Part shown: positions 17,386-58,700 of the stretch, one piece after another
Layout of the letters: the number at the start of each line of letters is the position of its first letter
Numbering within the stretch: the stretch's first letter is position 1
Source of the DNA: Candidatus Bipolaricaulota bacterium
Lineage (GTDB): Bacteria; Bipolaricaulota; Bipolaricaulia; M55B111
NCBI GenBank assembly: GCA_021735245.1
Contig: JAIPHJ010000008.1
Coordinates: 10-64,009 of the forward strand
Length of the DNA: 64,000 nucleotides
Reading direction: 5' to 3'
Made by a program: the position numbers and the translations under genes
Notes under the pieces: model-generated
The model's database searches: none
Seen by the model: the letters and a program-made list of their open reading frames with translations, nothing else
What the model was told of the DNA's origin: nothing

Positions 17386-18648
17386 TTAGTAAGCTTCGTC
17401 TGCGCTCCTTTCGATAGTTTTCAGTACTCCTGTCAGGTCTTCGCCACTAACGTAGTCCATTACCCCTGTCCATAAAGTTCCCGAACCGACGGCCGAAGGC
17501 ATGAGATCGGATCCATCAAAACGGAACGTTTCCGCTTCGGAAAGGATTCCGGCAGCTTTGGCTGTTATGGGGTCCGGGTAAACTTCTGAGCTAACGTTGG
17601 TGTTCACCGCTAACTTACCTAACTCCTTAACCCAGACTTCCTGAGCCTCAGCCGAGGCGAGGAATTCCATTAACTTGTGTGTTTCCTCCGTGTCGGTAAA
17701 GGCACTTACGAGGTCGCCAGCACCCAGGAGGGGGCTCCCGTGCTCCTCGTCAATCGGAGGAAATTTGAAGATGTCATAGTCCTCTCCCGGCACTAAGTCA
17801 GGGTATTGATCCTTAATAAAGCTCTGAATGAAAGTAGCCTGACGATGCATATAACAGCGGGGAGGGTCCGTGAACAGGCCAGCCGGGGAGTCTCCGAAGT
17901 AAGTTGTCAGCGCTCCGGTGGTGCCCCCGAATACGTAATCAGGGTTCTTTATTATACTGCCAAATTTCTCCCAGGCCCTGTGGACGACCGCGTCCGTCCA
18001 TTCTATTTCATGGTTGACCCAAGCGTCGTACATATCTGGTCCGGCGGTTCTAAGCATGATATCCTCGATCCAATCCGTGCCAACCCAACCGCTTGCAGCG
18101 CCGCTCTCCAGACCTATACACCAGGGAGTTCCTCCATTCGCAACTATTTGATCCGAAAGATCGATTAACTCGTCCCAGGTTTCGGGCACTTTGTAGCCCT
18201 GTTTTTCGAATTCCTTGGGATTGTACCAGACCAGGCTTTTGAGATCTGCGGAAAGAAAAACTCCGTAAAGATTATCATTTACGGTTGCCAGATCTACGAA
18301 GGCTTGCGGGTGATCTTCAACTATTGATTTATCAATGTTAACCAGAGCACCTTTCTTTGCAAACTCCTCCATCTGCCCGGGATTGGGAATAGCCGCTACG
18401 TCGGGAGGATTTCCACCCTCTACCCTGGTTACCAGAACAGTGGCTATATCCCTACCGATGGATTCAACAGTAACGTCAATCCCCGTATCTTCTTCAAATA
18501 TTTTTACTGTTTTCTTGAAGGCTTCCAGTTCTTCCCCACTCCAGGTGACGGCAATACTTACCTTGTTATCCTGGGCGAAACCGACGATTGTCATAGCTCC
18601 TGCTAACAGTAATCCGATCAAAACAATACTAAAACTTTTCTTTACCAT
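17386..18648 (-). CDS. Alpha-glucoside ABC transporter substrate-binding protein (AglE-like)
   Basis: GNPPDVAAIPNPG, KSLVWYNP, WCIGLESGAASGWVGTDWIED, RFDGSDLMP. Confidence 0.85.
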   Translation of the reverse strand: MVKKSFSIVLIGLLLAGAMTIVGFAQDNKVSIAVTWSGEELEAFKKTVKIFEEDTGIDVTVESIGRDIATVLVTRVEGGNPPDVAAIPNPGQMEEFAKKGALVNIDKSIVEDHPQAFVDLATVNDNLYGVFLSADLKSLVWYNPKEFEKQGYKVPETWDELIDLSDQIVANGGTPWCIGLESGAASGWVGTDWIEDIMLRTAGPDMYDAWVNHEIEWTDAVVHRAWEKFGSIIKNPDYVFGGTTGALTTYFGDSPAGLFTDPPRCYMHRQATFIQSFIKDQYPDLVPGEDYDIFKFPPIDEEHGSPLLGAGDLVSAFTDTEETHKLMEFLASAEAQEVWVKELGKLAVNTNVSSEVYPDPITAKAAGILSEAETFRFDGSDLMPSAVGSGTLWTGVMDYVSGEDLTGVLKTIERSADEAY

Positions 18649-19122
18649 CGTTGACCCTCCTTTTGGATTAATTCCGGGTAAAAATTATTGATTGGCTGAG
18701 CTAAAAATTTTACCTTATAGTGGTTTAACATCACCTCCTTTTTCATATTACATACCCCCATACTTCCAAACATCGCTTTATTAACCCATTTGGTATTATC
18801 AAGCGTCCATTACAAATCCTGAGCAAAAACACGTACTAATTTGCAGTTGTCATTCTAATTCCCTTTACGGATTTAGACCAGCGGAGTTAAAGATATCTGC
18901 TCACTATTAATAAGAGACTTTTTTAGTGTCAGTTTCATCTATTTTGTAAAATGCCATCGTGTTTCTCGACCCGGAAAACCCTTAAAAAATTATATTGAAA
19001 ATCTGATTTCTGTCAAATACATATATAGCTGTATAGGGCGGCCTATATCTTAGCGATTCTCGCCTGGGGGGTGAATTTCCCCATGATTCGACCCAGGGAT
19101 GCCATTCTCTTATAATAAAAAT

Positions 19123-19638
19123 ATGAAGAAAATACTGCAAAACTTTGAGTTATCTTTTGGTTGTTTTGTCGGCTGGGGGCTGCTGTACCTTCTCTGGCTG
19201 GTTCTCTTTCGGAAGATCGACCCTGTCATTATGGTGAGCGGGGTCTTTGTCGCCGGATTCGTGGTTTTCTTGTACGGCAGGTTCGAACTTGCTGTCGATA
19301 TTCCCCTCCGATCACTGGCCCGTCCCTTGCTCTGGATCAAGTTCTTTACGTCCCTGGTTCTGGAGATAGGTAAGTCCACCGTCAGGACGTGTTACATCAT
19401 TTTGACCGGGAGGGTAAAGGGTAAGATAGTTGCTTACGATACTAAACTGGGGTCCGGGTCGGGAAGACTATTTTTGATAAACTCCATTACGCTTACTCCG
19501 ATAACCATTGGAATACTCTCCGAAAAAAACCTGGTATATATTCACCACCTACATATCGAAGACAGGGACGACTACGAAGCCGTCGTGGATAAGATCCGTT
19601 CTACTTTCGAAGATCCTCTTCTAAAGCTTCTGGGATAA
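19123..19638 (+). CDS. mnhE: Mrp/Mnh antiporter subunit E (MbhA-like); start moved to ATG 19123
   Basis: LINSITLTP motif, LYIH-like C-terminus; TATAAT 6 nt before the ATG. Confidence 0.8.
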   Translation: MKKILQNFELSFGCFVGWGLLYLLWLVLFRKIDPVIMVSGVFVAGFVVFLYGRFELAVDIPLRSLARPLLWIKFFTSLVLEIGKSTVRTCYIILTGRVKGKIVAYDTKLGSGSGRLFLINSITLTPITIGILSEKNLVYIHHLHIEDRDDYEAVVDKIRSTFEDPLLKLLG

Positions 19639-19642
19639 AGCG

Positions 19643-19894
19643 ATGATCAGGATTTCAATCGACGCTGTCGTTGGGTTGAGTCTTGTTCTTACTCTCTATC
19701 GGCTGTTTTACGGACCCAGCGTCCTCGATCGTCTTCTCGGTTATAGTTCGGTTACCGGGAAAATAGTAATTCTTCTGGCGGTAGAGGGAATAATGGGAGG
19801 GAGGCCGGTCTTCATCAACCTGGCTCTGATCTACGGAGTGTTGAGCTTTCTTGGAATTGTCATTATAGCGAGGTATATAGAACGAGAGGTATGA
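19643..19894 (+). CDS. mnhF: Mrp/Mnh antiporter subunit F
   Basis: RLFYGPSVLDRL; three TM segments. Confidence 0.85.
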   Translation: MIRISIDAVVGLSLVLTLYRLFYGPSVLDRLLGYSSVTGKIVILLAVEGIMGGRPVFINLALIYGVLSFLGIVIIARYIEREV

Positions 19895-20196
19895 ACGTAT
19901 TTTCTCTGATACTGATCTATTTTGGTCTATTTTTGATGCTGGTGGGGTCCTTTGGTATCGCTCGGATGCCGGATATCTACTCGAGACTGCAGTCCAGCGG
20001 GGTATCGGATACGGTGGGTGTAATTGTTATGCTAGCGGGATTTCTCCTGCTGAACGGGTTCAGGTTTTCCGATTCTTTCCTTGGGTTGCTGATGTTGTTC
20101 TTCTTCGTTACCGGTCCAATTATCGGTCACTCCATTGCCAAATCGGCTTTTCTTTCGAAGGTCGAGCCCTCTCATTCCAGCGAAGAGGATGAGTGA
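19891..20196 (+). CDS. mnhG: Mrp/Mnh antiporter subunit G
   Basis: RMPDIYSRLQ..DTVG; TGPIIGHSIAK. Confidence 0.85.
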   Translation: MNVFSLILIYFGLFLMLVGSFGIARMPDIYSRLQSSGVSDTVGVIVMLAGFLLLNGFRFSDSFLGLLMLFFFVTGPIIGHSIAKSAFLSKVEPSHSSEEDE

Positions 20197-20199
20197 TCT

Positions 20200-21042
20200 A
20201 TGCTAATACTTTTCAGCCTCCTTCTGCTCGGGCTTTCCGTAGCCGTTTTACTCCAGAACAGGCTATTAAATGCGGTGATCCTGCTTGGCGTGTTTAGCCT
20301 CGTCAGTTCGGTTATCTATTTTTGGGTAGGGGCTCCGGACGTTGCCGTCACCGAGGGGGCGATTGGAGTAGCTTTCGTAACGTTTATTTACGTGCTGGCT
20401 TTAAGTGACCAGGGCAAGCTGCACGTGATTGCCGAAGAGGTCCCGCCTTTCCTGTTCCAGGAAAAAGGAGAACTGCAGGGGGCGGAGCTGGAGATACTGG
20501 AAGGGTTTGCCGAAAAAATAAACCTCGAGCTGGAGGTAGAGTTCGTGGGGCACCAGGAATTGACTTCGTTGATCGGGGGCAGGAGGGCGGACGTGATAGC
20601 TGGAGCCTATTTCCCCGGGTTCCTGGCCCAGGAGGAAATAAGCCACTCGAAGGGTTACAACCAGGGCCAGCTGGCGAAAATTCACCGGACCCCTCCGGGC
20701 GAGGGCGATATCGGAATCCTTGCGGAGACCGATCTTTCCGAATTTACCGAAATAAGCGAAGAAGATTTATCTCGATTTAGCTCTGTGGACGAGATGGTCA
20801 CGGCTTATAACGAGGGCCGGATTAGGGGATTCATTTCCGATTCCGGCCGGATGTCGGCCTCGTTGTACAGGGTAAATACTACCCTGCGGGATAAGAGTGA
20901 GATCGTTACGCTCGGTGAATTGGACTACAGTTTTGCCGTTTCTTCCGGGGAAGAAGAGCTTCTCGATCGGCTGAATGACTATTTGGCCGACCTGACTCGC
21001 TCGGGCAAAATCGGTGAACTGTTGTCGGATCACTTTCGGTGA
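20200..21042 (+). CDS. DUF4040 (MbhD-like) membrane subunit fused to a family-3 solute-binding domain
   Basis: aa 1-68: three TMs with APDVAVTEGAIG; aa 70-280: PPF..G.L.G.E.EI..FA..INLELE..ADVI ... YSFAVSSG..ELLDRLNDYL..L..SG. Confidence 0.8.
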   Translation: MLILFSLLLLGLSVAVLLQNRLLNAVILLGVFSLVSSVIYFWVGAPDVAVTEGAIGVAFVTFIYVLALSDQGKLHVIAEEVPPFLFQEKGELQGAELEILEGFAEKINLELEVEFVGHQELTSLIGGRRADVIAGAYFPGFLAQEEISHSKGYNQGQLAKIHRTPPGEGDIGILAETDLSEFTEISEEDLSRFSSVDEMVTAYNEGRIRGFISDSGRMSASLYRVNTTLRDKSEIVTLGELDYSFAVSSGEEELLDRLNDYLADLTRSGKIGELLSDHFR

Positions 21043-21743
21043 TAACAATGGGTAAGTATTCCGTGTCGTTGAAAACGTTGTACGTGATTTTTCTTGTGAT
21101 AATGTTTGGCGCCTTTACGATCGGAGCCCTGCTTATAGTAGATGATACGGGAGTTTCCCGGTTGGGTGCGATATACCTTGAGCGGAGTCAGAAGTTTCCA
21201 AATATTTCTAACGTCGTATTTGGGGTCTACGGGATGTACAGATTTTACGACACGCTGTTTGAATTATTGATATTCTCTACTGCCGTGCTGGGAATCACTG
21301 TATTTTCCGACCTGGAGCCCTCGCCGGGTTCGGCGTCGCGGAGACCGGTCGAGTCTCACGTTGTCTCAGCTTCTGCTTCGTTTCTCTACCCAATTATCGC
21401 CGTCTTTGGAATTTATCTCGCCTTTAGTGCCCATCTGGGTCCCGGAGGCGGGTTTGCCGGCGGGGTGATCAGCGGAACCGGGATACTTTTACTTGCTCTG
21501 GCGAAGGGCGCCGAGGAAACCGCTCGCAATTTCCGGGAAGATTCCATGAAGCAGCTCGAATACGTCGTACTTTTTCTGGCACTATTGGTAGCAATCCTTG
21601 GTGCCTTATATCCGACGGAAGTTTATCGGGATGCACTTGGAACCGGCGTGATCACCCTCGTAAATATATCGATAGCGATGAAGGTCTTCATCGGAACCTG
21701 GGCCATATTACACTTCTTTGTCAAACATAGAGGGGAAGTATGA
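21039..21743 (+). CDS. mnhB: Mrp/Mnh antiporter subunit B (MbhE/F-like)
   Basis: NVV..YRFYDTLFE; AHLGPGGGFAGG. Confidence 0.85.
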   Translation: MITMGKYSVSLKTLYVIFLVIMFGAFTIGALLIVDDTGVSRLGAIYLERSQKFPNISNVVFGVYGMYRFYDTLFELLIFSTAVLGITVFSDLEPSPGSASRRPVESHVVSASASFLYPIIAVFGIYLAFSAHLGPGGGFAGGVISGTGILLLALAKGAEETARNFREDSMKQLEYVVLFLALLVAILGALYPTEVYRDALGTGVITLVNISIAMKVFIGTWAILHFFVKHRGEV

Positions 21744-22108
21744 GTACCGGCGTACTGGCGTCTGCGATCTCGATAATTATCGTCTGTATTGGCGTACTTG
21801 GCCTGATACTTAAGCGAAATCTATTGTTGAAGCTTCTGAGTCTAAATATCGTAAATACGGCGACGATACTTTTCTTCGTACTGGTTGTTTACAGCCCCGG
21901 AGATAGAGCACCGATAGATCCGTCACCCGGGGTTCAATACGCCGACCCTCTACCTCAGGCTCTCGTCCTCACCTCCATAGTCATTAATTTCGGCGTCCTT
22001 GCTCTTTCACTTCTGTTTACGATGGTCCTGGTGAAGCGCTATCACACGCTTGATCTAATAAAAATAGAGGATTTCGTCAGGCGAGAATTCGAGGAGGAAA
22101 AGTCGTGA
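21740..22108 (+). CDS. mnhC: Mrp/Mnh antiporter subunit C
   Basis: ADPLPQALVLTSIVI. Confidence 0.9.
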   Translation: MSTGVLASAISIIIVCIGVLGLILKRNLLLKLLSLNIVNTATILFFVLVVYSPGDRAPIDPSPGVQYADPLPQALVLTSIVINFGVLALSLLFTMVLVKRYHTLDLIKIEDFVRREFEEEKS

Positions 22109-23631
22109 CCGCTCTACTGGTAGGGGTTGGCTCCTACGTCTCCGCGGGTATTTTAAGCCTTCTCTTTTCTCGTTACAGATTCTGGTTTAGTTTGTTAGGC
22201 TGGGCTGGAGCGCTGACCGGAGCTTCTTTTGGCGTCTCTTCCTTCCTCGGTTCGGGGCCGCTCGTGGGTACGCTGGGCAGGTGGGGAATTCTGGGGATCG
22301 AGATAGTAATAGATCAAACTACCCTCCTGTTTTCCGGCCTCGTCGTTATCCTGAATATTTTCACTCTGGTTTATCTCCGGGGGTCGAAGAAAGGGGTATT
22401 CTATTGCCTTTATAACTTCCTTCTGGCCACGACGTTTTCTATTGCTTTTTCTCACGATCTATTTAACCTCTACGTAACTATAGAGTTTATGTCCCTGGTG
22501 TCCATCCTGTTGATCGGATACGAGCGAAAAGCTTATCAAATTTATGCCGGCGCCAAATACCTGATAATTTCCTCGCTGGCAATGAGCCTTTACCTGATCG
22601 GACTGGGACTCGTTTACAGGGCTGGAGGAAGTCTGGGGATTAGCGAGCTGGCTCGGACCGTGGAAGGTGGGACTGATTTATCCATTTCCCTGGGTCTCTG
22701 TCTGATGTTGACCGGACTGGCCGTTAAAGGAGGAGTCTTTCTTTTCAGCATGTGGCTGCCCGACGCCCACTCCTACAGCGATACGGTTGTCTCCGCACTC
22801 CTTTCCGGAATGGCGATTAAGTCCGGCCTGATTGGAATCATCAGGGTCTCAGAAATGCTTGACTGGAGCCAGTTGTTGCTGGTGCTTGGGGCTCTGACCG
22901 GTATAGCAGGGGCAATATTTGCACTCGTAAGTCGCAAACCGAAAAAAATACTGGCCCATTCGACGATATCTCAGGTGGGTTATATCCTTATCGGAATTGG
23001 TACCGGAACTCCAGCAGGGGTTCTGGCCGCCTCGCTTCACTTATTTTTCCATGGACTGTTCAAGGCTTTGCTCTTTTTATCCGTAGGAGCAGCGGGGGTT
23101 GGAGCGGACGATATCGATCGAGCCAGGAACCTTTCGGTTCCCCTGACAAGCAAGGTAGGGTTGGTTGTCGGTTCGGTCTCGATAATGGCAATCCCCCCTT
23201 TCAACAAATACTTTAGCAAGACCATGCTCGTCGAGCAGGTAAACCAGGAGTGGGCCTGGTTTGCGATGCTGGCCATCGGACTCGGAACGGCCCTGTATAC
23301 CTTGAGACTTGACTGGGCTTTAATTTTTGAGGCTCGGACTGATTGGGCTGGTAAAAATGACTTTGTAGTAGTAGTTTTTGCCCTGGCTGTTGTTTTATCC
23401 AGCCTTCTGGCCTGGGTTATTTTAGGCAGCCCGGAGATGGTACAATTGCTGAGCTTGCACCACCTGGCTACATACCTTGTCATACCTGTTGTCGGCGGAT
23501 TTGCGCTGCTACTTTTCAAGAAGAAGTTGAGCGAGATCTCCCCCCCTGACTTTCCCTTTAGCCTGGAGAACTCCCTCGTTTCCTTGTTTACGGGCTTTCT
23601 GCTTATAGAGCTGGTATTGTTTGTACTTTAA
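22105..23631 (+). CDS. mnhD: Mrp/Mnh antiporter subunit D (proton-conducting, MbhH-like)
   Basis: DLFNLYVTIE, AVKGG, WLPDAH, STISQVGY, HGLFKALLF, PPFNKYFSK. Confidence 0.9.
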   Translation: MTALLVGVGSYVSAGILSLLFSRYRFWFSLLGWAGALTGASFGVSSFLGSGPLVGTLGRWGILGIEIVIDQTTLLFSGLVVILNIFTLVYLRGSKKGVFYCLYNFLLATTFSIAFSHDLFNLYVTIEFMSLVSILLIGYERKAYQIYAGAKYLIISSLAMSLYLIGLGLVYRAGGSLGISELARTVEGGTDLSISLGLCLMLTGLAVKGGVFLFSMWLPDAHSYSDTVVSALLSGMAIKSGLIGIIRVSEMLDWSQLLLVLGALTGIAGAIFALVSRKPKKILAHSTISQVGYILIGIGTGTPAGVLAASLHLFFHGLFKALLFLSVGAAGVGADDIDRARNLSVPLTSKVGLVVGSVSIMAIPPFNKYFSKTMLVEQVNQEWAWFAMLAIGLGTALYTLRLDWALIFEARTDWAGKNDFVVVVFALAVVLSSLLAWVILGSPEMVQLLSLHHLATYLVIPVVGGFALLLFKKKLSEISPPDFPFSLENSLVSLFTGFLLIELVLFVL

Positions 23632-23932: not shown

Positions 23933-24574
23933 TCAAAAGTCGTGCTGGTAGGCCAGGGTAGCGGTCAGTAAAACCGTCAGTCCGATAAACACCCAGGCGT
24001 CGACGTACCAGAAAAATATTACGATCCCGTATAGAAAGCCCCGCCTTCCCAACATGTAGCGTTGACTCCCCTTCTTGAATAATTTTTCCAGATAGGCCGG
24101 GGCTGAATTCCCTTCGATTTTTTCCAATTTTTCCGGGTCACTCCGGACCAGCACCGTGAGGTTGTTTATATGCCTCAAGGCAAGTAGAAGGTTAAGGAAC
24201 GAGAAAGCCAGGGTGAAAAAGACGAGCCATACCGGGTAGTTTACTGACTCAATAAGGGAGGGACCCTCAGTTACCGGTCCCCCCGTCAAACCATAAGTCA
24301 GAAGGAATCCAACCAACAGGATACTGGCAGAAGCTAGAAAGGTAATGCTCATGATCATATTTCTCAGCTGGTGCACCAGCAGGAGGTGTTGACCTTCCTC
24401 CGTAGACTTTTTCAACCAGGAGGCGTAACAATCGTTAATCCGGCCTTTCTTTGTCAAGCTCGGCTTTTTCTCTGTGAAGTACAGGTAAGTCCAGTGGTAA
24501 AGGGGGAAACAGAAGCCAAAGACGAGAAAAGCCAGTATGGTTTTTAATTCCATGTTGACCCCTTTGATTGGCAT
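23933..24574 (-). CDS. DUF599-like membrane protein; start probably the second Met
   Basis: QLRNMIMSITFLAS and GRRGFLY match the DUF599 pattern. Confidence 0.65.
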   Translation of the reverse strand: MPIKGVNMELKTILAFLVFGFCFPLYHWTYLYFTEKKPSLTKKGRINDCYASWLKKSTEEGQHLLLVHQLRNMIMSITFLASASILLVGFLLTYGLTGGPVTEGPSLIESVNYPVWLVFFTLAFSFLNLLLALRHINNLTVLVRSDPEKLEKIEGNSAPAYLEKLFKKGSQRYMLGRRGFLYGIVIFFWYVDAWVFIGLTVLLTATLAYQHDF

Positions 24575-24781
24575 ACGGTGGTCTAATTCAGGATATTAGC
24601 AGCGGGGCGAAATTACAAGACGAGAGTTACTACACCTTCTAAGCCTGAACGTGTTGAAAGTTTACCAAAATCGCCGGAGATTAAGCAGTTGACAACAAAA
24701 TGTTCTTAGTGTTCTTCTGCCTTCAGCCTCCGGCTGCAAGTCGTGGTGGGGGTTTTAGGGCTACGTAGCCTTCCCAATTTA

Positions 24782-26458
24782 TTAGAGCAAGCTCTGAAGC
24801 GGCTGGGGCCTTCCTATATGGTAGCCCTGGGCGTGGTCGGTCCCGTAATTTTTCACCATTTGAAGTGTCTCTTCGTCTTCGACGAACTCGGCTATTGTCT
24901 CCTTTTTTAGCCGGTGGGCAACCTCGACTATCGACTGGACCAGATCCTGATTCATAGAGTCCCGGGGGAGGTTCTGGATGAAGCTGCCGTCGATCTTCAG
25001 GTAGTCCACCGATAGCTGCTTGAGATAGTTGAACGAGGAAAACCCCATACCGAAATCGTCGAGAGCGAATTTACTTCCTCTTGACTTCAGAGTCGAAATG
25101 AAGTCGTTTGCAGACCCGATGTTGCTCAGGGCGGCAGTTTCCGTAACTTCGAACAGGACTCTTTCGAAGTTTCCTCCTTCCAGCGTCCGGTTGGACTTCA
25201 ACCAGTTTAGAAGTTCGTTGTCCGTCAGGGACTGACCGGATAAATTAATTGCAAATTGATGGTTAAGGCTTTCGCTCGCTGTTCCGGTCAAATTGTCCAG
25301 TGTTTCATTCACCACCCATTTATCGATATCCCTGCTCAGACCGAACTTTTCCGCCACCGGGAGAAACTTCCCCGGCGATATTAGCTCGCCTCCCCCTTCC
25401 AGCATCCTAATTAGTACCTCGTAATGGGATATATTATCAGATCCCAGTTCCAGTATAGGCTGTGCGTAGAGCACAAAGTTGTTTTTCTTTATCGCGCTAT
25501 CGATCCGGTTGACCCAGCCGATCCTCGATTTAACTTCTTCCTGGCTGTCGTGCTCCGAATCGTAAACTTTGAATTGATTTCTGCCAGATTCCTTTGCCTG
25601 GGCGAGAGCGATGTCCGCCTTTGCCAGTAGCTCATCGGTACTTGTGCCTTGATCTGGAAATAGGGAATACCCCATGCTAATAGTAGACTGGATTTTTGTG
25701 CCATTAGTCTTGAATCCTCGTTCCCGAACTTCTCGAATGATTTCCCTGGCTAGTTTTTCGGCATCTTTCCTAGTCTTTTCGGGAGATAGGACTATAAATT
25801 CGTCCCCGCCGAATCGGGCCAGGTTATCGGACTCGGATAGCTTGTTCTTCAATAGACCTGCCATTGAAACCAGTAGATCGTCGGCCGCTCCAAACCCGAA
25901 GCTGTTGTTGACTTCCCTTAATCGGTCTATATCAACTAATAAGACTGCCCCTGACGTCCCTTCACCGTTCTGGCTCAGATAGTTTTCGAGATCGTCACGA
26001 AATTTGTAGTGATTGGGTAGCCCTGTAAGTCTGTCGTGGTGTCGCTGGTGGTTAAGCTCTTTTTTTAACCTGATTGTGTCTGATTTATCCTTGAGTGATA
26101 CTATGGCTCCAATTACTTCCCCTTCTTCATCTCTGAGAGGGTTGGTCGTGCAGTTCACCGGGATTCTAACCCCGTCTTTTTTCCAGAATACATCTTCAAT
26201 GCTTATATTTTTTTTGTAGCTTATGGACCGTGATACGGGAGAAACTTCCCATTGATCTTTTCCGTCCCCGGTTGAGTAGATGAGGTTAGAGTGAAGATAA
26301 TCCCCCAACAAATCTTCCCCCTCTTTGATGATATTTCCTTCGGCCGACGAGTTTGCGAATACGATTTTGCCGTCTTCATTGACTACTAGAACGTTCTGAT
26401 CGGTTTTGTTTAGTAAAGCAGGGGTGGTAGCATTGATATTTTCGAATATTTCCTCCAA
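24782..26458 (-). CDS. PAS-GGDEF-EAL c-di-GMP cyclase/phosphodiesterase
   Basis: PAS/PAC; HDRLTGLPN; RFGGDEF; QPI..EVLIR; FEVTET; ALDDFG; KIDGSF; AEFVE; QGY. Confidence 0.92.
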   Translation of the reverse strand: MEEIFENINATTPALLNKTDQNVLVVNEDGKIVFANSSAEGNIIKEGEDLLGDYLHSNLIYSTGDGKDQWEVSPVSRSISYKKNISIEDVFWKKDGVRIPVNCTTNPLRDEEGEVIGAIVSLKDKSDTIRLKKELNHQRHHDRLTGLPNHYKFRDDLENYLSQNGEGTSGAVLLVDIDRLREVNNSFGFGAADDLLVSMAGLLKNKLSESDNLARFGGDEFIVLSPEKTRKDAEKLAREIIREVRERGFKTNGTKIQSTISMGYSLFPDQGTSTDELLAKADIALAQAKESGRNQFKVYDSEHDSQEEVKSRIGWVNRIDSAIKKNNFVLYAQPILELGSDNISHYEVLIRMLEGGGELISPGKFLPVAEKFGLSRDIDKWVVNETLDNLTGTASESLNHQFAINLSGQSLTDNELLNWLKSNRTLEGGNFERVLFEVTETAALSNIGSANDFISTLKSRGSKFALDDFGMGFSSFNYLKQLSVDYLKIDGSFIQNLPRDSMNQDLVQSIVEVAHRLKKETIAEFVEDEETLQMVKNYGTDHAQGYHIGRPQPLQSLL

Positions 26459-33138: not shown

Positions 33139-36100
33139 ATGGGACATACTATTTTTAAAGAGAGCGTCCGGGTCACTCCGGGCAAACTGATATTGGTAAT
33201 CTTTGCGGTATTAACTTTCCTGTTTATCTCTTCTTCAACTATACTGGCGGATGACGGTCCACCCTGGGTGGGGACTACTCTCGACGACCTATCATACACG
33301 GAACAGGAGGGGTGGAAGGGCCTGGATGCGGAAGTGACTGTGACCTCGGATACAAACGACTTCACCGACGGGTACGTCGAGGTGGAGATAGCTGACGGAA
33401 CCCGGTTCGACGAGCTACAGTTGGTGGACGGGACGGACCTGAGTGTTGACGGGAATGTAGTTTACTGGAATGGCGATCGGGTAGGCTCGATCGACAATAC
33501 CTACGACGGTTCGAACGGAAGACTCCGAATTAATTTTAGCGCTGCGGCCCCGCTTGAAAATTCTGGTTTCGAGTCGGGTGACCTATCCGGCTGGACGGTT
33601 AATACAGTCGGGAACAGTATGAGAGGACAGACATGGGCGGAGGGCCCTGACGTCCTGGGATTTACCGGTGATTCTGACCCCAGATATGATGACCAGATTT
33701 CGGGCTCAGGGGTTACGGACGTTAATTCCGGCGCGGCCTACGAAGGGGAATACGGGCTGGAGCTTGAAATTACCGGTGATGTTGGTGCCGCTTACGGTAC
33801 CGGTCACACCCCGTCTGTAACGAGCTCGACGTTTACCGCCGAGTCAGGTGATAGCCTGACCGTGAGGTGGAAGGCTTCCCAGACGAATGACTACTACGAT
33901 GTTTTTGGTTTCCTGTTCTCTGATTCCGACGGCGACGGAAAGATGGCCAATGAGAATTACCAACTTCTCTTTCACGAGATCGGCTCGGACACCGGCGGAT
34001 GGCAAAGCTTAACCACCTCTCTCACGATAGGGGGAGACAATCTCCGATTTAAGTTTCTGAACGGGGGCTACGACCGGTCCGGTAACATGGTCGTCGGGTC
34101 TTATCTCTGCATAGACGAGATAAAACTCCAGATTTCAAATACTACCACCGCCACTGAGGCAGTAGTTCAGTCCGTAATAGAACATTTGGAGTACAGAAAT
34201 ACCTCCGATAACCCCGGGGACGTAAAAAATTACGACCTAAACTTCAGAGAAAGCGACGGAGGGTTAGGGTATAACTCTGCCCGGATAGACATCTCTCCGG
34301 AAAACGATCCACCAACCGGGGTAAGTTTGAGCGGCAACTCTGTGGACGAAAATACTCCGCCCGGGAATATCGTGGGGACTCTTTCGACGACTGATCCGGA
34401 CGATTCAAGTTTCACGTATAGCTTAATCGGCGGCGACACCGGGTCTTTCAGGATCAACGACGTCCAGCTTGAGACCGCCAGAGAGTTCGATTACGAATCT
34501 CAAACGACCTATACCGTTCAGGTACAGTCCGATGACGGGAACGGCGGTACGTACGATCGGACGTTCACCATCTCCGTTAATGATGTCAACGATAAACCGA
34601 TTGCCGACGCCGGGCCCAGCAAGATAATTAGCCTTCACGAGACAGCTATCCTCGATGGGTCCAGCTCAGTAGATAAGGATGGCGATTCGCTTAGTTTCAG
34701 CTGGAGCCTTGTTCAGAAACCGTCGGACCTTTCGATCCCCGTTACCGTTCAGGATAACCTATCAAATCCTAACGCTTCCAGGGCCGAGTTCTTTCCTACA
34801 GGTAAGGGAGAAAATACGCGAGGCATTTACCGGTTTGAACTTGCTGTCTCGGACGGTAACGGAAATTCGGATACCGACGAACTTCAAATAACGGTAACCG
34901 GCTCACCGAAAGATATAAAAGGCGACAGCCTGACTTCGAAAGGGGTTGAGGGTCCCGATCCCGGACCTGCCGACTTCACTGAAGAAGCGGATCTCAAAGT
35001 CGACTTAAAAAACGTGAACTCCGGCACCCGGGGACTAATAGGTGGGTTTCAATACGATGAGGCGTACTTTCCTGAAGACAAAAGGTTTCCCGGCCCTGCA
35101 GTAAAATACGCCGACGTAAAAGCAATAGAGGTAAATTCCGGCAATGCACGGATCAGCGTACATTATACGGATCAGGAGGTATCTCAATTTATCGAGGAGG
35201 GACTAAAGCTCTACGTCTATTACGACGGGAGCTGGTCCGAGGCAGATAATATAAATGTGGATACTTCCGACAACGTCGTACAGGGTGACGTAGCCGTTTC
35301 AAAACTCACCGGAAGCCCGATAACTGTCTCGGGGAACCAATCACCCCGCGCCGATTTCGCCTACGAACCATCCGAACCCGAAGTTAACGAGACAATAAAC
35401 TTTTACGGGGCCCTCTCCTCGGATTCGGACGGCTCTATAAGCACTTACAGGTGGGACTGGACGAACGACGGAAGGTACGATACTACTGCTTCTGCCCCTA
35501 CCAGCACGCATTCGTTCCCGGATTACGACATCTATACCGTCAAACTGCAGGTCGTTGACGACGACGGGGGGACCGCGACCTTCACAAAAGAAGTTAACGT
35601 AGGTAAAAACACGAAGGAAGGGAAAGACGTTGACGTCCAGTTCGATAGTTTATCCTACAATTGTGGGTCCCTGAAAGGAGTTAAGTTAACGTTCAGCGAG
35701 GTAACCAGCACCGGCTCCACGGAAGTAAGGGTAAGTGACGAACCGTCATTTGCTCAGCCGTCCGGCATTACTTTCCTGGATTGTTTTTACAGGATAGAAA
35801 CTACCGCTGGTTTCAAGGGCCCGGTAGGGATCGAGATGGACTACGACGACTCGTCATTGACCGAAACTCAGGAGAAAAACCTGAAATTGTTTAAATTGAC
35901 CGAAGACGAAGGATGCCAGGCTATTACCGAATCACTTGACCCTGAAAAGAATGTAGTCAGCGGGAAGTCAGGTGGTTTTTCCTACTTTTCTCTCGGTTAC
36001 GGCACAGGCACCTTGCCGGGTGAAGATTTGATTAACCACGGCCCAAACCCCGTCCCGGACGAGGGCTGTGACTTCTGGCTTGACCTACCGGAGGAAGCAA

Positions 36101-36339
36101 GCGGGGCGACACTTAGAATCTATGACGTAGACGGTAAGCCACTTTACGAAGTGGACCTGGATGCAAACCAGAGCAGGTATCCCTCCACCGGCAGGTGGAA
36201 CCCGCAAGACGAAAACGGAAGTAAATTGGATACCGGCGTTTACATATATCGGGTGAGAGTCAAAGGAGATAATGGTTCCGATAGATGGTCGGAGGTGCAC
36301 AGGCTGGTGCTGGATAGGTCGGACCCCTCTCAGGGATGA
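33139..36339 (+). CDS. Large secreted surface/adhesin protein: CBM-like, cadherin, PKD domains and C-terminal FlgD-Ig/T9SS-CTD-like domain
   Basis: Signal peptide; NSGFESGDLSGW; ENDPPT..VDEN..DPD..DYE..VNDVND; PIADAG; NQSPRADF..DSDG..WDW..VVDDDG; GPNP..LRIYD..G..W..D..G..L..GVYIYR. Confidence 0.82.
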   Translation: MGHTIFKESVRVTPGKLILVIFAVLTFLFISSSTILADDGPPWVGTTLDDLSYTEQEGWKGLDAEVTVTSDTNDFTDGYVEVEIADGTRFDELQLVDGTDLSVDGNVVYWNGDRVGSIDNTYDGSNGRLRINFSAAAPLENSGFESGDLSGWTVNTVGNSMRGQTWAEGPDVLGFTGDSDPRYDDQISGSGVTDVNSGAAYEGEYGLELEITGDVGAAYGTGHTPSVTSSTFTAESGDSLTVRWKASQTNDYYDVFGFLFSDSDGDGKMANENYQLLFHEIGSDTGGWQSLTTSLTIGGDNLRFKFLNGGYDRSGNMVVGSYLCIDEIKLQISNTTTATEAVVQSVIEHLEYRNTSDNPGDVKNYDLNFRESDGGLGYNSARIDISPENDPPTGVSLSGNSVDENTPPGNIVGTLSTTDPDDSSFTYSLIGGDTGSFRINDVQLETAREFDYESQTTYTVQVQSDDGNGGTYDRTFTISVNDVNDKPIADAGPSKIISLHETAILDGSSSVDKDGDSLSFSWSLVQKPSDLSIPVTVQDNLSNPNASRAEFFPTGKGENTRGIYRFELAVSDGNGNSDTDELQITVTGSPKDIKGDSLTSKGVEGPDPGPADFTEEADLKVDLKNVNSGTRGLIGGFQYDEAYFPEDKRFPGPAVKYADVKAIEVNSGNARISVHYTDQEVSQFIEEGLKLYVYYDGSWSEADNINVDTSDNVVQGDVAVSKLTGSPITVSGNQSPRADFAYEPSEPEVNETINFYGALSSDSDGSISTYRWDWTNDGRYDTTASAPTSTHSFPDYDIYTVKLQVVDDDGGTATFTKEVNVGKNTKEGKDVDVQFDSLSYNCGSLKGVKLTFSEVTSTGSTEVRVSDEPSFAQPSGITFLDCFYRIETTAGFKGPVGIEMDYDDSSLTETQEKNLKLFKLTEDEGCQAITESLDPEKNVVSGKSGGFSYFSLGYGTGTLPGEDLINHGPNPVPDEGCDFWLDLPEEASGATLRIYDVDGKPLYEVDLDANQSRYPSTGRWNPQDENGSKLDTGVYIYRVRVKGDNGSDRWSEVHRLVLDRSDPSQG

Positions 36340-55947: not shown

Positions 55948-56195
55948 CTGAAGATAGAATCAACCGAGGTAGAACCAATAAGTGAAGAAGAAATAAAAGG
56001 AGAGGTAGATGACCTACACAAATTACTTACCAAAGGTAGCTTCTTTGAGCAGAAACAATTCCTTTCCAAGTTCATAGAAGAAATTATCGTGAACCCATTG
56101 GTAAAGTCGAAAATGAGTTTTCTTAGTTCACTAGGTAAGAACGAATAGGTTAAGCAATCTAGCTCCCCGGCGTGCACTTCATACAAACTTTTGTA
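55948..56195 (+). pseudogene. C-terminal remnant of a large serine recombinase (absent from the ORF track)
   Basis: Manual translation LKIESTEVEPISEEEIKGEVDDLHKLLTKGSFFEQKQFLSKFIEEIIVNP resembles the LSR coiled-coil-distal 'E.K..L...I..I.V' pattern. Confidence 0.55.
56162..56192 (+). repeat. att-like direct repeat, copy 1
   Basis: GCTCCCCGGCGTGCACTTCATACAAACTTTT; 28/31 identical to 57378-57408. Confidence 0.8.
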
Positions 56196-56462
56196 CTGAT
56201 TTTGGATTAAAAATGGTTTTGGTCGTAATGTATTTTGACTTAGATAAATCAGCAGGATTTTTATTTAAGCAGTAATTCTCCCGGATTCGAGAATTTTATT
56301 TTAGCTTCTTAGTATAGGGGGTGATGCGAAAAAAATACGCACCCACTCTTCCCATGAAATTGCGATATAACATGAAAAGTTTTATTATAAAAATTAATTG
56401 GGTGTTTTGATAAAATTCTAAAATTTGTCTAAATTCTTATTGTTAAGCCTGTTTAATTCACA

Positions 56463-57185
56463 TTGAAACTAACAATTTCCCCGAAGATAAAAAGTTTTCT
56501 CGACAATAGAAGTCAAATTTTTTGGGGGGCATTTTATTTTCTTTTAGGGAGTATTGTTACCTTATTGATTGGAATGTGGACTTCTGGTCGACTCAGAACA
56601 ACTGGAAAACACATTGAGATTAAGGCAACAGGTCAAGTGCTCCTCACTTCCAATGATCAGCCTGATGTATCTTTATTATATAAAGGGGAAAAATTCCCTA
56701 ATCTTAGAATAATTACAGTCAGGATTTCCAATGTCGGTACTAAGGGTATGAATGGTATAGCTGGAAATAAAAACGTTTCTCAACCAATAAGGTTCTCTTT
56801 TAGTAAAGCTAAGTCAGAATTGTTAGGAGCGAGCGTCAATAGAAATCCAACTGGGGTTAAAGTAAAACGCAGATTAATAAAAGAAAAAGATAAATTGGTA
56901 GTCGAATTTGATGTATTAAACAAAAAGAATTACTTCTCTTTAAATATTTTCTATTCTGCAAGCCAGAAGATATGTCCTAAAGTAGACGGAAAGTTCAAAG
57001 ATATAAGTCGAAATGAATTGAATACTCTGAAAAATTGCCCCCTTCAAGAAAGACAGGGGCTTTTCCCCTTTTGGTGGCCACTATTAATTATTATGGGAGT
57101 GAGTGTATTAATAATGATTTTGTCCGTTTTTCGCAATATATTAGGGAAAGTAAAATATGAATACGTGGCTAAAAAGGATAAGTAA
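56463..57185 (+). CDS. AT-rich hypothetical membrane protein with N- and C-terminal TM segments
   Basis: 240-aa ORF with markedly lower GC and basic composition. Confidence 0.65.
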   Translation: MKLTISPKIKSFLDNRSQIFWGAFYFLLGSIVTLLIGMWTSGRLRTTGKHIEIKATGQVLLTSNDQPDVSLLYKGEKFPNLRIITVRISNVGTKGMNGIAGNKNVSQPIRFSFSKAKSELLGASVNRNPTGVKVKRRLIKEKDKLVVEFDVLNKKNYFSLNIFYSASQKICPKVDGKFKDISRNELNTLKNCPLQERQGLFPFWWPLLIIMGVSVLIMILSVFRNILGKVKYEYVAKKDK

Positions 57186-57377
57186 ATTTAATACTTAAAA
57201 AAGCTACTCTTCTTATTAAGGAAATATCGGGAGAAGAGTGTGCTAAATCAAAACCAGTTTACTCCAGTAAAGTCAAAAGGTGAGAACCCTCGTTTATTTC
57301 GGCAGAAGAGTTGACGTAAAGATATAACGATTATCTAAAAAAGTTGAGTGTCTTTGTGAAGAAAAAGAACCTATTTT

Positions 57378-57408
57378 GCTCCCCGGGATGCACTTCATAA
57401 AAACTTTT
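57378..57408 (+). repeat. att-like direct repeat, copy 2
   Basis: GCTCCCCGGGATGCACTTCATAAAAACTTTT. Confidence 0.8.
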
Positions 57409-57431
57409 AGAGTGATAATTAAATGAGATTT

Positions 57432-57482
57432 TACTAGTAGGTATTCCTTAACGTCCGGATCATATCAAAGCTCCCAACTCAT
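57432..57482 (-). pseudogene. Truncated RelE/ParE-like toxin remnant
   Basis: ATGA overlap with the antitoxin stop codon; reads MSWEL*YDPDVKEYL. Confidence 0.5.
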
Positions 57483-57703
57483 TTGAGATTCTCAAAAACT
57501 TCCTCATGGGAAAGAGTATTCCCCGACTCGTAGTTTTCCAGAGCCTTTTGTCGAATTTCTTCGAGGGACACCTTGCGTAAAATTACGTTGCCATCTCTTT
57601 CTATGAGTGCTAGCTTGTCACCTTTTTTCAGTTCCAGTTTCTCACGAATCTCCTTGGGTATGGTTATCTGTCCCTTGCTGGTGAGGGTTGCGGTAGTGGT
57701 CAT
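57479..57703 (-). CDS. AbrB/MazE/SpoVT-family antitoxin
   Basis: TSKGQITIPKEIREKL.L..GD.L; C-terminal G.TLSHEEV; GGAGG RBS. Confidence 0.9.
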   Translation of the reverse strand: MTTTATLTSKGQITIPKEIREKLELKKGDKLALIERDGNVILRKVSLEEIRQKALENYESGNTLSHEEVFENLK

Positions 57704-57957
57704 GATTACCCTCCTATTTATTTGTTGAATCGAGTAAGAAATCCTTACTTAGGCTAAAATTACTATACTATGATAAACTGAAATTATCAAACTCGCCGGT
57801 TTCGCCAACTGTAAATGATCTTACTAGGGTTCGTTCTTTTACCAGTGTGTCTGTTGGCCGAAACAAGGCTCCATGCAAAGCCAAAGAGTTTATAAGGCTC
57901 ATTTTGGATTTAGTGTATTATAGCCTCCAGAGGCGAGGGTTGGGGCTGTCGTAACTT

Positions 57958-57989
57958 TTAACAAATTCTTAACATTTCATTAATAAGTT
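57958..57989 (+). promoter_or_regulatory. TTAACA direct repeats (OmpR/PhoP-type box) and -10 of a probable leaderless transcript
   Basis: TTAACA 57958, TTAACA 57969, TTAATA 57980; TAAGTT at 57984-57989, 6 nt before the ATG. Confidence 0.55.
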
Positions 57990-57995
57990 ATCTAT

Positions 57996-58700
57996 ATGGA
58001 CAAGAAAATACTGGTTGTCGACGACGATAAAGAGCTCGTGGATTTCCTCGAAGATTATCTTGAAAAAGACGGGTACTCCGTCACGGGAGCCTACAACGGG
58101 AAAGAAGCTCTCCAGTTATTTAGAAAGCGTGAGTTTGACCTGGTCGTCCTGGATCTCATGCTACCGGAGATGGACGGTTACAACGTATGTAAAAGGATGA
58201 GGCGCGATTCGGAAGTACCCATAGTTATGCTTACCGCGAAAACGGCCGATGAAGAAAAGATAAAAGGTCTCGATCTTGGAGCGGACGATTACGTGACGAA
58301 GCCGTTTAATCCGGGAGAACTACTGGCCAGGATCAGAGCCTCGCTCAGGAGAGTCGAGAATGAAGATCAGCCAAAAGAACTCACTTACGGGGACCTTACC
58401 GTCAATTTTTCGAGAAAAGAGGTCCTACTGGACAACGAACCTGTAGACATTACCCCGACTGAGTTCAAAATACTGGCGGCCCTGGTCAAAGAACCGGACA
58501 AGGTATTTTCGAGAACTCAGCTTATCCATGCCGCCCTGGGCTTCGGGTACGAAAGCTTCGAGAGGACAATCGATGTGCATATCAAACACCTGAGGGACAA
58601 GATCGAACCGGATCCCCAGGATCCCAGTTATATAAAGACCGTCTTCGGTATGGGTTATAAGTTCGATTCCAGAGGGAAAGAAGGAGGTAGCGAAACATGA
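57996..58700 (+). CDS. OmpR-family response regulator
   Basis: VDDD, LDLMLP, MLTAK, GADDYVTKPF, RTIDVHI, TVFGMGY. Confidence 0.95.
   Translation: MDKKILVVDDDKELVDFLEDYLEKDGYSVTGAYNGKEALQLFRKREFDLVVLDLMLPEMDGYNVCKRMRRDSEVPIVMLTAKTADEEKIKGLDLGADDYVTKPFNPGELLARIRASLRRVENEDQPKELTYGDLTVNFSRKEVLLDNEPVDITPTEFKILAALVKEPDKVFSRTQLIHAALGFGYESFERTIDVHIKHLRDKIEPDPQDPSYIKTVFGMGYKFDSRGKEGGSET

Follow-up and report, generated by a model that had tools for sequence, protein, structure and literature searches.

A gene at 20200-21042 of the 64,000-nucleotide stretch of DNA analysed here (the window; contig JAIPHJ010000008.1 of the Candidatus Bipolaricaulota assembly GCA_021735245.1) encodes a membrane subunit of an Mrp-type cation/proton complex, which continues within the same polypeptide into a soluble domain of the family-3 substrate-binding protein (SBP) type. 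We give a probability of about 50% to a reading in which this domain, as an integral part of the complex, caps or gates a remodelled cation entrance on the cytoplasmic side. The reading draws on the attachment of the domain to the helix that carries the coupling glutamate, on its predicted cytoplasmic orientation, on the apparent decay of its canonical ligand site, and on the replacement of cation-path residues in the same operons. The third transmembrane (TM) helix of NuoJ, ND6 and MbhD stands at the centre of the debate on ion coupling in complex I, MBH and Mrp. The operon belongs to a clade in which a domain of ~210 residues is predicted to sit on the cytoplasmic end of that helix, in a minimal complex with one proton channel and neither MrpA nor a redox module, and in which the proposed cytoplasmic Na+ entrance residues are changed.

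Results

Architecture and distribution of the fusion

The open reading frame (ORF) is unbroken and joins a three-TM MbhD/DUF4040 module to a complete two-lobe SBP_bac_3 domain, each recognised by Pfam well above its cut-off: residues 7-70 match MbhD (PF13244; E 7e-16, 58.6 bits against 27.2) and residues 77-279 match SBP_bac_3 (PF00497; E 1e-11, 45.1 bits against 26.4). The motif APDVAVTEGAIG is found in the protein; a signal peptide is absent, and the SBP domain comes after a TM helix. An AlphaFold2 model built on a 56-sequence alignment (predicted local distance difference test score, pLDDT, 93.1; predicted template modelling score, pTM, 0.81) places the TM helices at residues 2-18, 22-42 and 46-69, followed by a three-residue linker, a strand at 73-78 and a full alpha/beta two-lobe domain, and the geometry between TM3 and the soluble domain looks rigid in this model. 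Foldseek comparison of the model with the PDB returned family-3 amino-acid-binding proteins (4ymx, ArgBP, GlnBP, ArtJ and the GluR0 core; E 3e-18 to about 1e-17), with template modelling scores (TM-scores) on target of 0.72-0.78 to closed binding proteins; the closed form fits better than the open one (0.76 for 1wdn against 0.54 for 1ggg). At the level of sequence, a family profile found its best PDB match in the tethered GlnPQ domain pair 6h30 (E 5e-31), with 4zv1 at 5e-22, and the first 74 positions of the profile match MBH chain D and MBS chain D. The soluble part, residues 71-280, is very acidic (net charge -21 over 210 residues, or -10%; isoelectric point (pI) 4.5), and E80, P82, G94, A134, G135, G172, D214, R217 and F245 are invariant in a 16-sequence family alignment.

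The fusion is real, far beyond chance or assembly error. Both Pfam domains are present in 52 of 53 homologues of 154-490 residues with identities down to about 30%, the exception (P0048) being a 229-residue fragment; the named matches are Candidatus Bipolaricaulota/Acetothermia. Counting the rows of a profile search over 151 sampled Bipolaricaulota genomes, we found a full-profile match in a single frame in 83, and partial matches in 7 more, several of them at contig ends; in only one genome of the 151 (G014) do the two halves lie in adjacent frames. This retention of a single frame across the phylum rules out an assembly join or a lost stop codon as the source of the fusion. An exhaustive search of 1.84 billion cluster representatives returned 324 proteins at E<=1e-3, of which 150 were listed; a Pfam scan of the 87 listed representatives that are at least 160 residues long and whose match begins in the MbhD part recognised MbhD in all 87 and SBP_bac_3 at E<=0.01 in 45 (27 above the gathering score). 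Named members include at least six Marinitoga species and other Thermotogota, as well as Synergistota in which only MbhD is recognised by Pfam. Intact extended MbhD proteins occur in about 94 of 151 Thermotogota genomes, with 3 partial matches and one case of overlapping frames (Marinitoga lauensis). Nor is the architecture unique to one genome: it occurs widely in two phyla, cultured species of Marinitoga among them.

The M. lauensis case (strain LG1; L010:6001-6740) consists of two overlapping frames, a 92-residue MbhD part and a 162-residue SBP part, and other Marinitoga species carry an intact fusion gene of 245-251 residues; the split is either a long-read frameshift error or a genuinely split or decaying gene. 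A locus search with a single Marinitoga protein returned no loci, and one with a tighter Marinitoga alignment returned three, one of which carries the fusion. Two full-length copies of the fused gene are present in each of two genomes, G099 (contigs C2 and C71) and G215 (C45 and C53).

Within the window the operon runs mrpE-F-G-[fusion gene]-[MbhE+MrpB]-C-D, which is the MbhA-H gene order, and its six junctions are tight, with a 4-nucleotide overlap at four and a gap of 3-4 nucleotides at two. The same order, E-F-G-[MbhD with or without SBP]-[MbhE/B]-C-D, is retained in most of the fetched loci of Bipolaricaulota and Thermotogota. At five Thermotogota loci (L015-L018 and L038) the fused gene is paired with an MbhE/B gene and the fetched flanks hold no E, F, G, C or D; the remaining subunits there may be encoded elsewhere.

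A preliminary description of this DNA, made from the sequence alone, had reported one ORF joining a three-TM DUF4040 module to a complete family-3 domain in a tightly coupled E-F-G-[gene]-B-C-D operon. Pfam, AlphaFold2 and Foldseek bear out the former and the gene junctions the latter. The domain search and genome census that it proposed have now been carried out, with the results above, and the consistently split homologues that would have counted against it were not what the census returned, a split gene being seen in G014 and M. lauensis.

A minimal Mrp complex without MrpA

Every Mrp domain type (E, F, G, MrpA-C/MbhD plus MbhE, B, C and D) is encoded within 19099-23631 according to Pfam, MbhE by a weak match together with an alignment to 6u8y_E. 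MrpD is the sole PF00361 protein of the operon, MrpA's N-terminal portion is missing, and the flanking genes are unrelated. Group 3 stand-alone Mrp systems are defined as having no mrpA and only MrpD-type antiporter subunits (PMC8415708), so the operon falls into this group by definition. From its sequence it is predicted to encode an Mrp (CPA3)-type cation/proton complex of group 3 with a single MrpD. The essential proline of MrpG (the equivalent of P86g) is retained.

The gene annotation of the window holds no redox module near the operon, and no ABC transporter partner for the SBP domain lies within the operon. An Rfam scan of 18500-19300 at E<=1 gave one sub-threshold chance match (16.5 bits against a cut-off of 55.6), and promoter and terminator scans at the operon did no better than shuffled sequence.

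Attachment to the coupling helix

Glu52 of the fusion protein (codon 20353-20355) aligns with E69 of MbhD (6cfw_D, offset +17). E69d is named as the homologue of MrpA E706a, and MrpA E706 is described as an essential carboxylate that contacts the bound cation at the Na+/H+ coupling point (Steiner and Sazanov, PMC7419157). Given this equivalence of Glu52, E69 and E706, the soluble domain begins about 20 residues past the coupling glutamate on the same helix; in the AlphaFold2 model it starts three residues after that helix ends. Mutations of H719 and P721, at the end of the E706 helix, change the Km for Na+ in the Mrp of Anoxybacillus flavithermus (PMC7419157). The same source has MbhD correspond to TM1-3 of NuoJ/ND6, in agreement with the preliminary description. 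Of 31 fused loci, 20 retain Glu52 and the others have Gln or Ser; family alignments show Glu52 to be invariant in the Bipolaricaulota-type set, with the Gln and Ser forms falling in the Thermotogota-type set.

Orientation of the soluble domain

The distribution of positive charge over 56 family members is strongly asymmetric, with a mean of 0.27 Lys+Arg at the N-terminus, 1.86 in the loop between TM1 and TM2, 0.07 in that between TM2 and TM3 and 2.43 after TM3. By the positive-inside rule the module is therefore predicted to have its N-terminus outside and its C-terminus inside, the soluble domain following TM3 on the inner side. An unfused paralogue on another contig of the same genome (C8) combines MbhD and MbhE in one 217-residue chain, and its equivalent TM3-TM4 loop has four Arg/Lys; the MbhE+MrpB subunit of the operon itself has a Lys-bearing N-terminus ahead of its first TM helix. 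Published topology can be brought to bear through the helix HL, which is located between TM15 and TM16 of MrpA/NuoL. HL lies on the cytoplasmic side of MrpA (PMC7419157), so the odd-numbered helices should run from outside to inside and TMH19, the equivalent of MbhD TM3, should end in the cytoplasm. Finally, a 231-residue metagenome protein (P0172 and its cluster) carries a PTS_EIIA_2 domain with its GIALTH histidine motif fused to MbhD at the point where the SBP domain is attached in the window; a metagenome scan for loci with this MbhD-PTS_EIIA_2 fusion found none. The occurrence of an EIIA and an SBP domain at the same point makes the C-terminus of MbhD seem a recurrent site for cytoplasmic regulatory modules. 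Together these observations argue strongly, from sequence, for a cytoplasmic SBP-type domain.

Negative charge as a conserved 'cation antenna' was considered and dropped, the net charge ranging from -32 to +6 across the 56 members.

Conservation of the ligand site

The segment in which canonical family-3 proteins carry their Arg (…TITEERKK… in AncQR) aligns with AYFPGFLAQEE in the window, which lacks Arg; the replacement of the 'ITPER' segment noted in the preliminary description thus stands. This loop differs widely among orthologues, with the variants FPGFLAQEE, FPGHLGQQG, FTRSCTDID, YPTPAQEEQ, MPTPKGKKK and others, and in the lobe-2 segment opposite the GST motif of AncQR nothing is conserved beyond G172. 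In the canonical proteins we take Arg and Ser/Thr to hold the alpha-carboxylate, together with a lobe-2 Gly-Ser/Thr motif, and Asp to contact the alpha-amino group. The window protein has neither the carboxylate Arg nor the Ser/Thr nor the lobe-2 motif, and these positions vary among orthologues; E79/E80 and the invariant D214 alone are kept, aligned with conserved acidic positions of the canonical binding proteins, and R217 is also invariant. Conservation falls off along the chain, with a majority fraction in the 16-sequence alignment of 0.81 in MbhD, 0.68 in the first half of lobe 1, 0.46 in the 'ITPER' loop and 0.42 in lobe 2, which is shortened, variable and interrupted by indels.

Related proteins take this reduction further. 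Thermotogota relatives of ~230 residues lack most of lobe 2 in the alignment, and for a 234-residue member AlphaFold2 (pLDDT 92.2) leaves roughly one strand and one helix of that lobe, with a Foldseek TM-score on target of about 0.55. Forms of ~180 residues align with the window protein only through residue 134, which takes in half of lobe 1 (hhalign probability 99.9). In a large group (A4) of about 31 cluster representatives, ~175-195 residues long, MbhD is followed by an extension of ~110 residues, of which the first ~65 share homology with the N-terminal half of SBP lobe 1; these proteins are weakly related to the NCBIfam PRK07377 'hypothetical protein' models.

As judged from these alignments, the SBP_bac_3 domain appears to have lost the canonical amino-acid site, and the evidence is mostly against a conserved ligand in the clamshell. 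Either a cationic ligand or an internal Arg acting as a 'pseudo-ligand' that locks the shell would fit the set of E79/E80, D214 and R217.

Cation-path residues and phylogeny

To the loci already in hand were added 40 further operons, 20 fused and 20 unfused, hand-picked for spread and length of contig from the hit lists of both genome searches; duplicates of the window, the C8 contig and the M. lauensis locus were removed, and MrpF was counted at loci with both an MbhD and an MrpF ORF. The window's MrpF aligns without gaps to 6z16_F, 6cfw_B and 6u8y_B, keeping Asp29 and placing Ser35 opposite their Asp. This D35 has been called 'invariably conserved', and the D35L mutation abolishes activity (PMC7419157). 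Position 35 is S, N, A, H or L in all 24 fused operons (14 Bipolaricaulota, 10 Thermotogota), and Asp in all 22 unfused ones (11 Bipolaricaulota, the paralogue of the window's genome included, 10 Thermotogota and 1 Fermentibacterota). The window's MrpC, aligned to 6cfw_G and 6u8y_G, has Asn39 opposite D37g of MBH and Ile43 opposite H41g; position 39 is acidic in 3 of 24 fused against 20 of 21 unfused operons, and at position 43 a single fused operon of the 24 has Asn, as opposed to 21 of 21 unfused ones. At the periplasmic exit, Asp71 and Glu75 of the MbhE+MrpB subunit correspond to the pair D792/E796 of MrpA; all 30 fused loci keep them, as do 21 of the 22 unfused loci, the last having a gap. 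MrpG H42 was dropped from the entry residues that might discriminate, since the Gln that replaces it here is shared by MBS, a complex of solved structure.

A tree built from 41 MrpD rows has a branch of length 1.26, with an SH-like approximate likelihood ratio test (SH-aLRT) value of 100, to one side of which the 20 fused operons all fall, each phylum forming its own subgroup. The fused operons constitute one old and distinct Mrp subfamily, found in Bipolaricaulota, Thermotogota and probably Synergistota. Because they form one clade, the covariation of residues with the fusion is a clade signature, essentially one event rather than repeated co-evolution.

Features of the operon and other observations in the window

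Table 1. Coordinates of the fusion gene, its domains and the accompanying Mrp subunits (positions in the window).
Feature	Coordinates	Strand	Product or extent	Evidence
Fusion gene	20200..21042	+	280 residues, ATG start; MbhD/MrpA-C(TM17-19)-like module plus predicted cytoplasmic SBP_bac_3 domain	ORF list, Pfam, AlphaFold2, Foldseek
MbhD/DUF4040 part	20218..20409	+	residues 7-70	Pfam, AlphaFold2 secondary structure, alignment to 6cfw_D
SBP_bac_3 (periplasmic-binding-protein type II) domain	20428..21036	+	residues 77-279	Pfam, profile against PDB, Foldseek
MrpE/MbhA-like subunit	19099..19638	+	179 residues	Pfam MNHE PF01899, E 1.3e-20; alignment to chain A of MBH and of MBS
MrpF/MbhB-like subunit	19643..19894	+	83 residues; Asp29 kept, Ser35 (codon 19745-19747)	Pfam PF04066
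MrpG/MbhC-like subunit	19891..20196	+	101 residues	Pfam PF03334; alignment to 6z16_G and 7qru_G
MbhE-like (N-terminal two TM) plus MrpB/MbhF-like subunit	21039..21743	+	234 residues	Pfam MnhB, weak MbhE match; alignment to 6u8y_E
MrpC/NuoK-like subunit	21740..22108	+	122 residues	Pfam PF00420; alignment to 6cfw_G and 6u8y_G
MrpD/NuoN-like antiporter subunit	22105..23631	+	508 residues	Pfam PF00361, E 2.7e-52

Genes for a DUF599 membrane protein and a PAS-GGDEF-EAL protein of cyclic di-GMP turnover lie on the other strand immediately downstream of the operon (23933-26458, -). Further along, 33139-36339 (+) encodes a protein of 1066 residues (pI 4.1, net charge -104) with PKD, cadherin-like and Ig-like domains, which is probably a cell-surface protein. 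The G+C content drops to 0.35 at 56001-58000, from about 0.47-0.51 elsewhere, and this patch, which contains a basic ORF of 240 residues (56463-57185; pI 10.2) without a Pfam match, may be foreign DNA.

The same genome has a second, canonical Mrp/Mbh-type cluster (L003; contig C8, 1-5495), inside which the contig ends. Its order is the tail of a larger membrane subunit, the 217-residue MbhD+MbhE protein without an SBP domain, MrpB, C, D, E, F (with Asp35 kept) and G, and a 203-residue 4Fe-4S dicluster protein. The cluster is probably part of an Mbh/Mbx-like complex driven by redox reactions.

Discussion

The cap or gate that we propose would work as follows. The fusion gene supplies the MbhD subunit (MrpA TM17-19, NuoJ TM1-3) of a minimal, MrpA-less complex, and TM3, with its coupling Glu52, leads through the three-residue linker straight into the SBP-derived domain, which is predicted to be cytoplasmic. 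The MrpD proton channel and the periplasmic exit are retained, as is the coupling glutamate in Bipolaricaulota, and the polar or acidic residues on the cytoplasmic side of the path (MrpF Asp35, the acidic residue at MrpC 39 and MrpC Asn43) are exchanged. The domain would lie at the cytoplasmic surface above the entrance formed around MbhD and MrpF, and may shape or gate the access of cations to Glu52, in the manner of the built-in cytoplasmic regulatory domains of other transporters, and of the EIIA domain fused at the same site, rather than of a classical ligand receptor. Several points weigh against this reading. We infer the position of the domain over the entrance, its contact with MrpF or other subunits and its gating role. 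The fused and unfused loci were hand-picked from hit lists, and the MrpD tree comes from a quick IQ-TREE search. Since the covariation amounts to one event, it is no proof of a functional link between the domain and the changes in the path. Ser, Asn and Thr can still coordinate Na+, and the cation path may simply have been retuned. Moreover, the Bipolaricaulota forms keep a complete closed clamshell with invariant E80, D214 and R217, which leaves room for a ligand.

It is this last point that speaks for a ligand-gated Mrp, in which the clamshell would bind a small molecule other than an amino acid, such as a cation or amine, and its closure would act through TM3 to switch the Glu52 site. The clamshell is complete, confidently folded and modelled closed, acidic residues persist at the canonical positions beside the invariant R217, the tether to the Glu52 helix is short and looks rigid, and the EIIA-type domain of another lineage indicates that the position accepts regulatory modules. 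We nevertheless think this explanation unlikely. The Arg and Ser/Thr that would hold a carboxylate are gone and the equivalent loop differs among orthologues; lobe 2 is the least conserved part, with indels and little more than G172 left opposite the GST motif; and there are sister lineages without most of lobe 2, or with only half of lobe 1, so that cleft closure cannot be what the extension does in all of them. The domain also hangs from a single tether, unlike the clamshells of glutamate receptors, between whose halves the pore is placed, and R217 could itself fill the amine site. The small-molecule sensor gating the antiporter that the preliminary description put forward, the most exciting reading, is therefore not favoured by the data, with the ligand loop at 0.46, lobe 2 at 0.42 and lobe 2 reduced in sister lineages. 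Its more specific form, a working cytoplasmic sensor in which a cation, polyamine or other amine is held by E79/E80 and D214 and movement passes through TM3 to Glu52, seems to us more doubtful still. Were it true, ligand gating would be seen for the first time in the Mrp/MBH/complex I superfamily, and the clade would offer a natural system in which the helix equivalent to NuoJ/ND6 TM3 is driven from outside the membrane.

The degenerate ligand site speaks for a further possibility, a purely structural remnant, a scaffold for folding, assembly, stability or dimerisation with no role in ion access or regulation. The stepwise reduction from 280 to about 230 and about 180 residues across lineages points this way, as does the fact that the membrane-adjacent first half of lobe 1 is the best-conserved piece of the domain (0.68); Mrp dimerisation is known, and the dimer has been proposed to stabilise an unfavourable membrane-thinning fold (PMC7419157). 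However, a full two-lobe fold of about 210 residues has been kept under purifying selection across the phylum at identities down to about 30%, the invariant charges of E80, D214 and R217 are atypical of a mere scaffold, and the accompanying replacement of cation-path residues hints at some connection with transport, so that we regard this explanation, too, as unlikely. Ligand gating, like the cap or gate, has the domain inside the cell, where the preliminary description had put it as probable. An extracytoplasmic tethered binding domain, comparable to those of GlnPQ or OpuA and capturing a solute for the complex or signalling to it, is by contrast highly improbable. SBP_bac_3 domains are normally extracytoplasmic and the best PDB sequence match is the tethered GlnPQ pair; the acidity of the domain (-10%) is closer to that of the window's extracellular SBP_bac_1 (-9.0%) and PKD/cadherin (-9.8%) proteins than to its other proteins, which is weak evidence for an outside location and a further point against our reading. 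Against such a location stand the clear positive-inside pattern over 56 sequences, the Lys/Arg-rich homologous loop of the unfused MbhD+MbhE protein and the Lys-bearing N-terminus of the next subunit, the cytoplasmic end of TMH19 that follows from the side of HL and the established NuoL/MrpA topology, and the cytoplasmic PTS_EIIA_2 domain at the same position in a sister protein. Nor are Mrp complexes known to take up solutes.

If the domain is a cap or gate, these operons provide a simple genetic test of a disputed Na+ entry route, setting MrpF D35 against the domain, and an entry point for structural studies of an Mrp of small size, with cultured hosts available in Marinitoga. Even if the domain is only structural, recognition of a separate and widespread Mrp subfamily will improve annotation, the present labels being misleading for an Mrp subunit.

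Comparison with known systems

In public databases the proteins of the subfamily bear nothing but automatic names ('transporter substrate-binding domain-containing protein', 'hydrogenase subunit MbhD domain-containing protein', 'ABC-type amino acid transport substrate-binding protein'), and the subfamily is uncharacterised. Literature searches on DUF4040/PF13244/MbhD, on Mrp in Thermotoga or of group 3, and on Mrp with a substrate-binding or cytoplasmic domain found no description of the architecture, and nothing of the sort for any Mrp or complex-I-type assembly, in line with the preliminary description, which knew of no characterised Mrp that has it; the available parts of an Mrp review (PMC5703873) and of the structural papers on Mrp make no mention of such a domain.

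The closest characterised relative is the stand-alone group 3 Mrp of Pyrococcus furiosus (mrpEFGBB'CD, PMC8415708), which shares the order E-F-G-[MbhD/E-type]-[B-type]-C-D. According to that source it likewise consists of MbhA-H homologues without MrpA, has one proton channel, of the MrpD type, and lacks any module for energy input, redox or other; its MbhD and MbhE are fused in one 'MrpB' that has no soluble domain (PMC8415708). The window operon differs in that MbhD ends in the SBP-type domain of ~210 residues, MbhE is fused to MrpB, and MrpF Asp35 and the acidic residue of MrpC are replaced. All seven subunit types of the A. flavithermus Mrp (6z16) and of MBH/MBS (6cfw, 6u8y) align with the window operon, and E706a/E69d (E52), D792/E796 (D71/E75), MrpF D29 and MrpG P86 are shared. 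Compared with the A. flavithermus complex, the window operon lacks the N-terminal antiporter module of MrpA and the HL helix; D35 of MrpF has become Ser, and H37/H40 of MrpC (D37g/H41g in MBH) have become Asn and Ile. The soluble domain at the end of the E706-equivalent helix is found in the window operon and not in 6z16, 6cfw or 6u8y.

With the family-3 binding proteins GlnH, HisJ, ArtJ and ArgBP the domain has in common its PF00497 membership, the two-lobe type II fold and the acidic E79/E80 and D214 positions; unlike them it is predicted to be cytoplasmic, lacks the carboxylate Arg and Ser/Thr, has a shortened lobe 2 and has no ABC partner. Covalent attachment of an SBP-type clamshell to a membrane transport protein is also seen in GlnPQ, OpuA and the GluR0/ionotropic glutamate receptors. 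Their domains are extracytoplasmic with conserved ligand sites, in which the window domain differs, as it does in having a partner from the complex I/Mrp superfamily. In ionotropic glutamate receptors, moreover, the pore is inserted between the clamshell halves and two or three linkers connect them; here there is a single N-terminal tether from lobe 1, the ligand site is not conserved and lobe 2 is dispensable in sister lineages.

Among cation transporters, the RCK/KTN domains of Kef and Trk are cytoplasmic regulatory domains. NhaP/NHE proteins have C-terminal hydrophilic domains (PMC5703873). The window protein, as predicted, resembles both groups in bearing a cytoplasmic soluble domain on a cation transporter, and differs from them in the fold of that domain, which is of the periplasmic-binding-protein type II.

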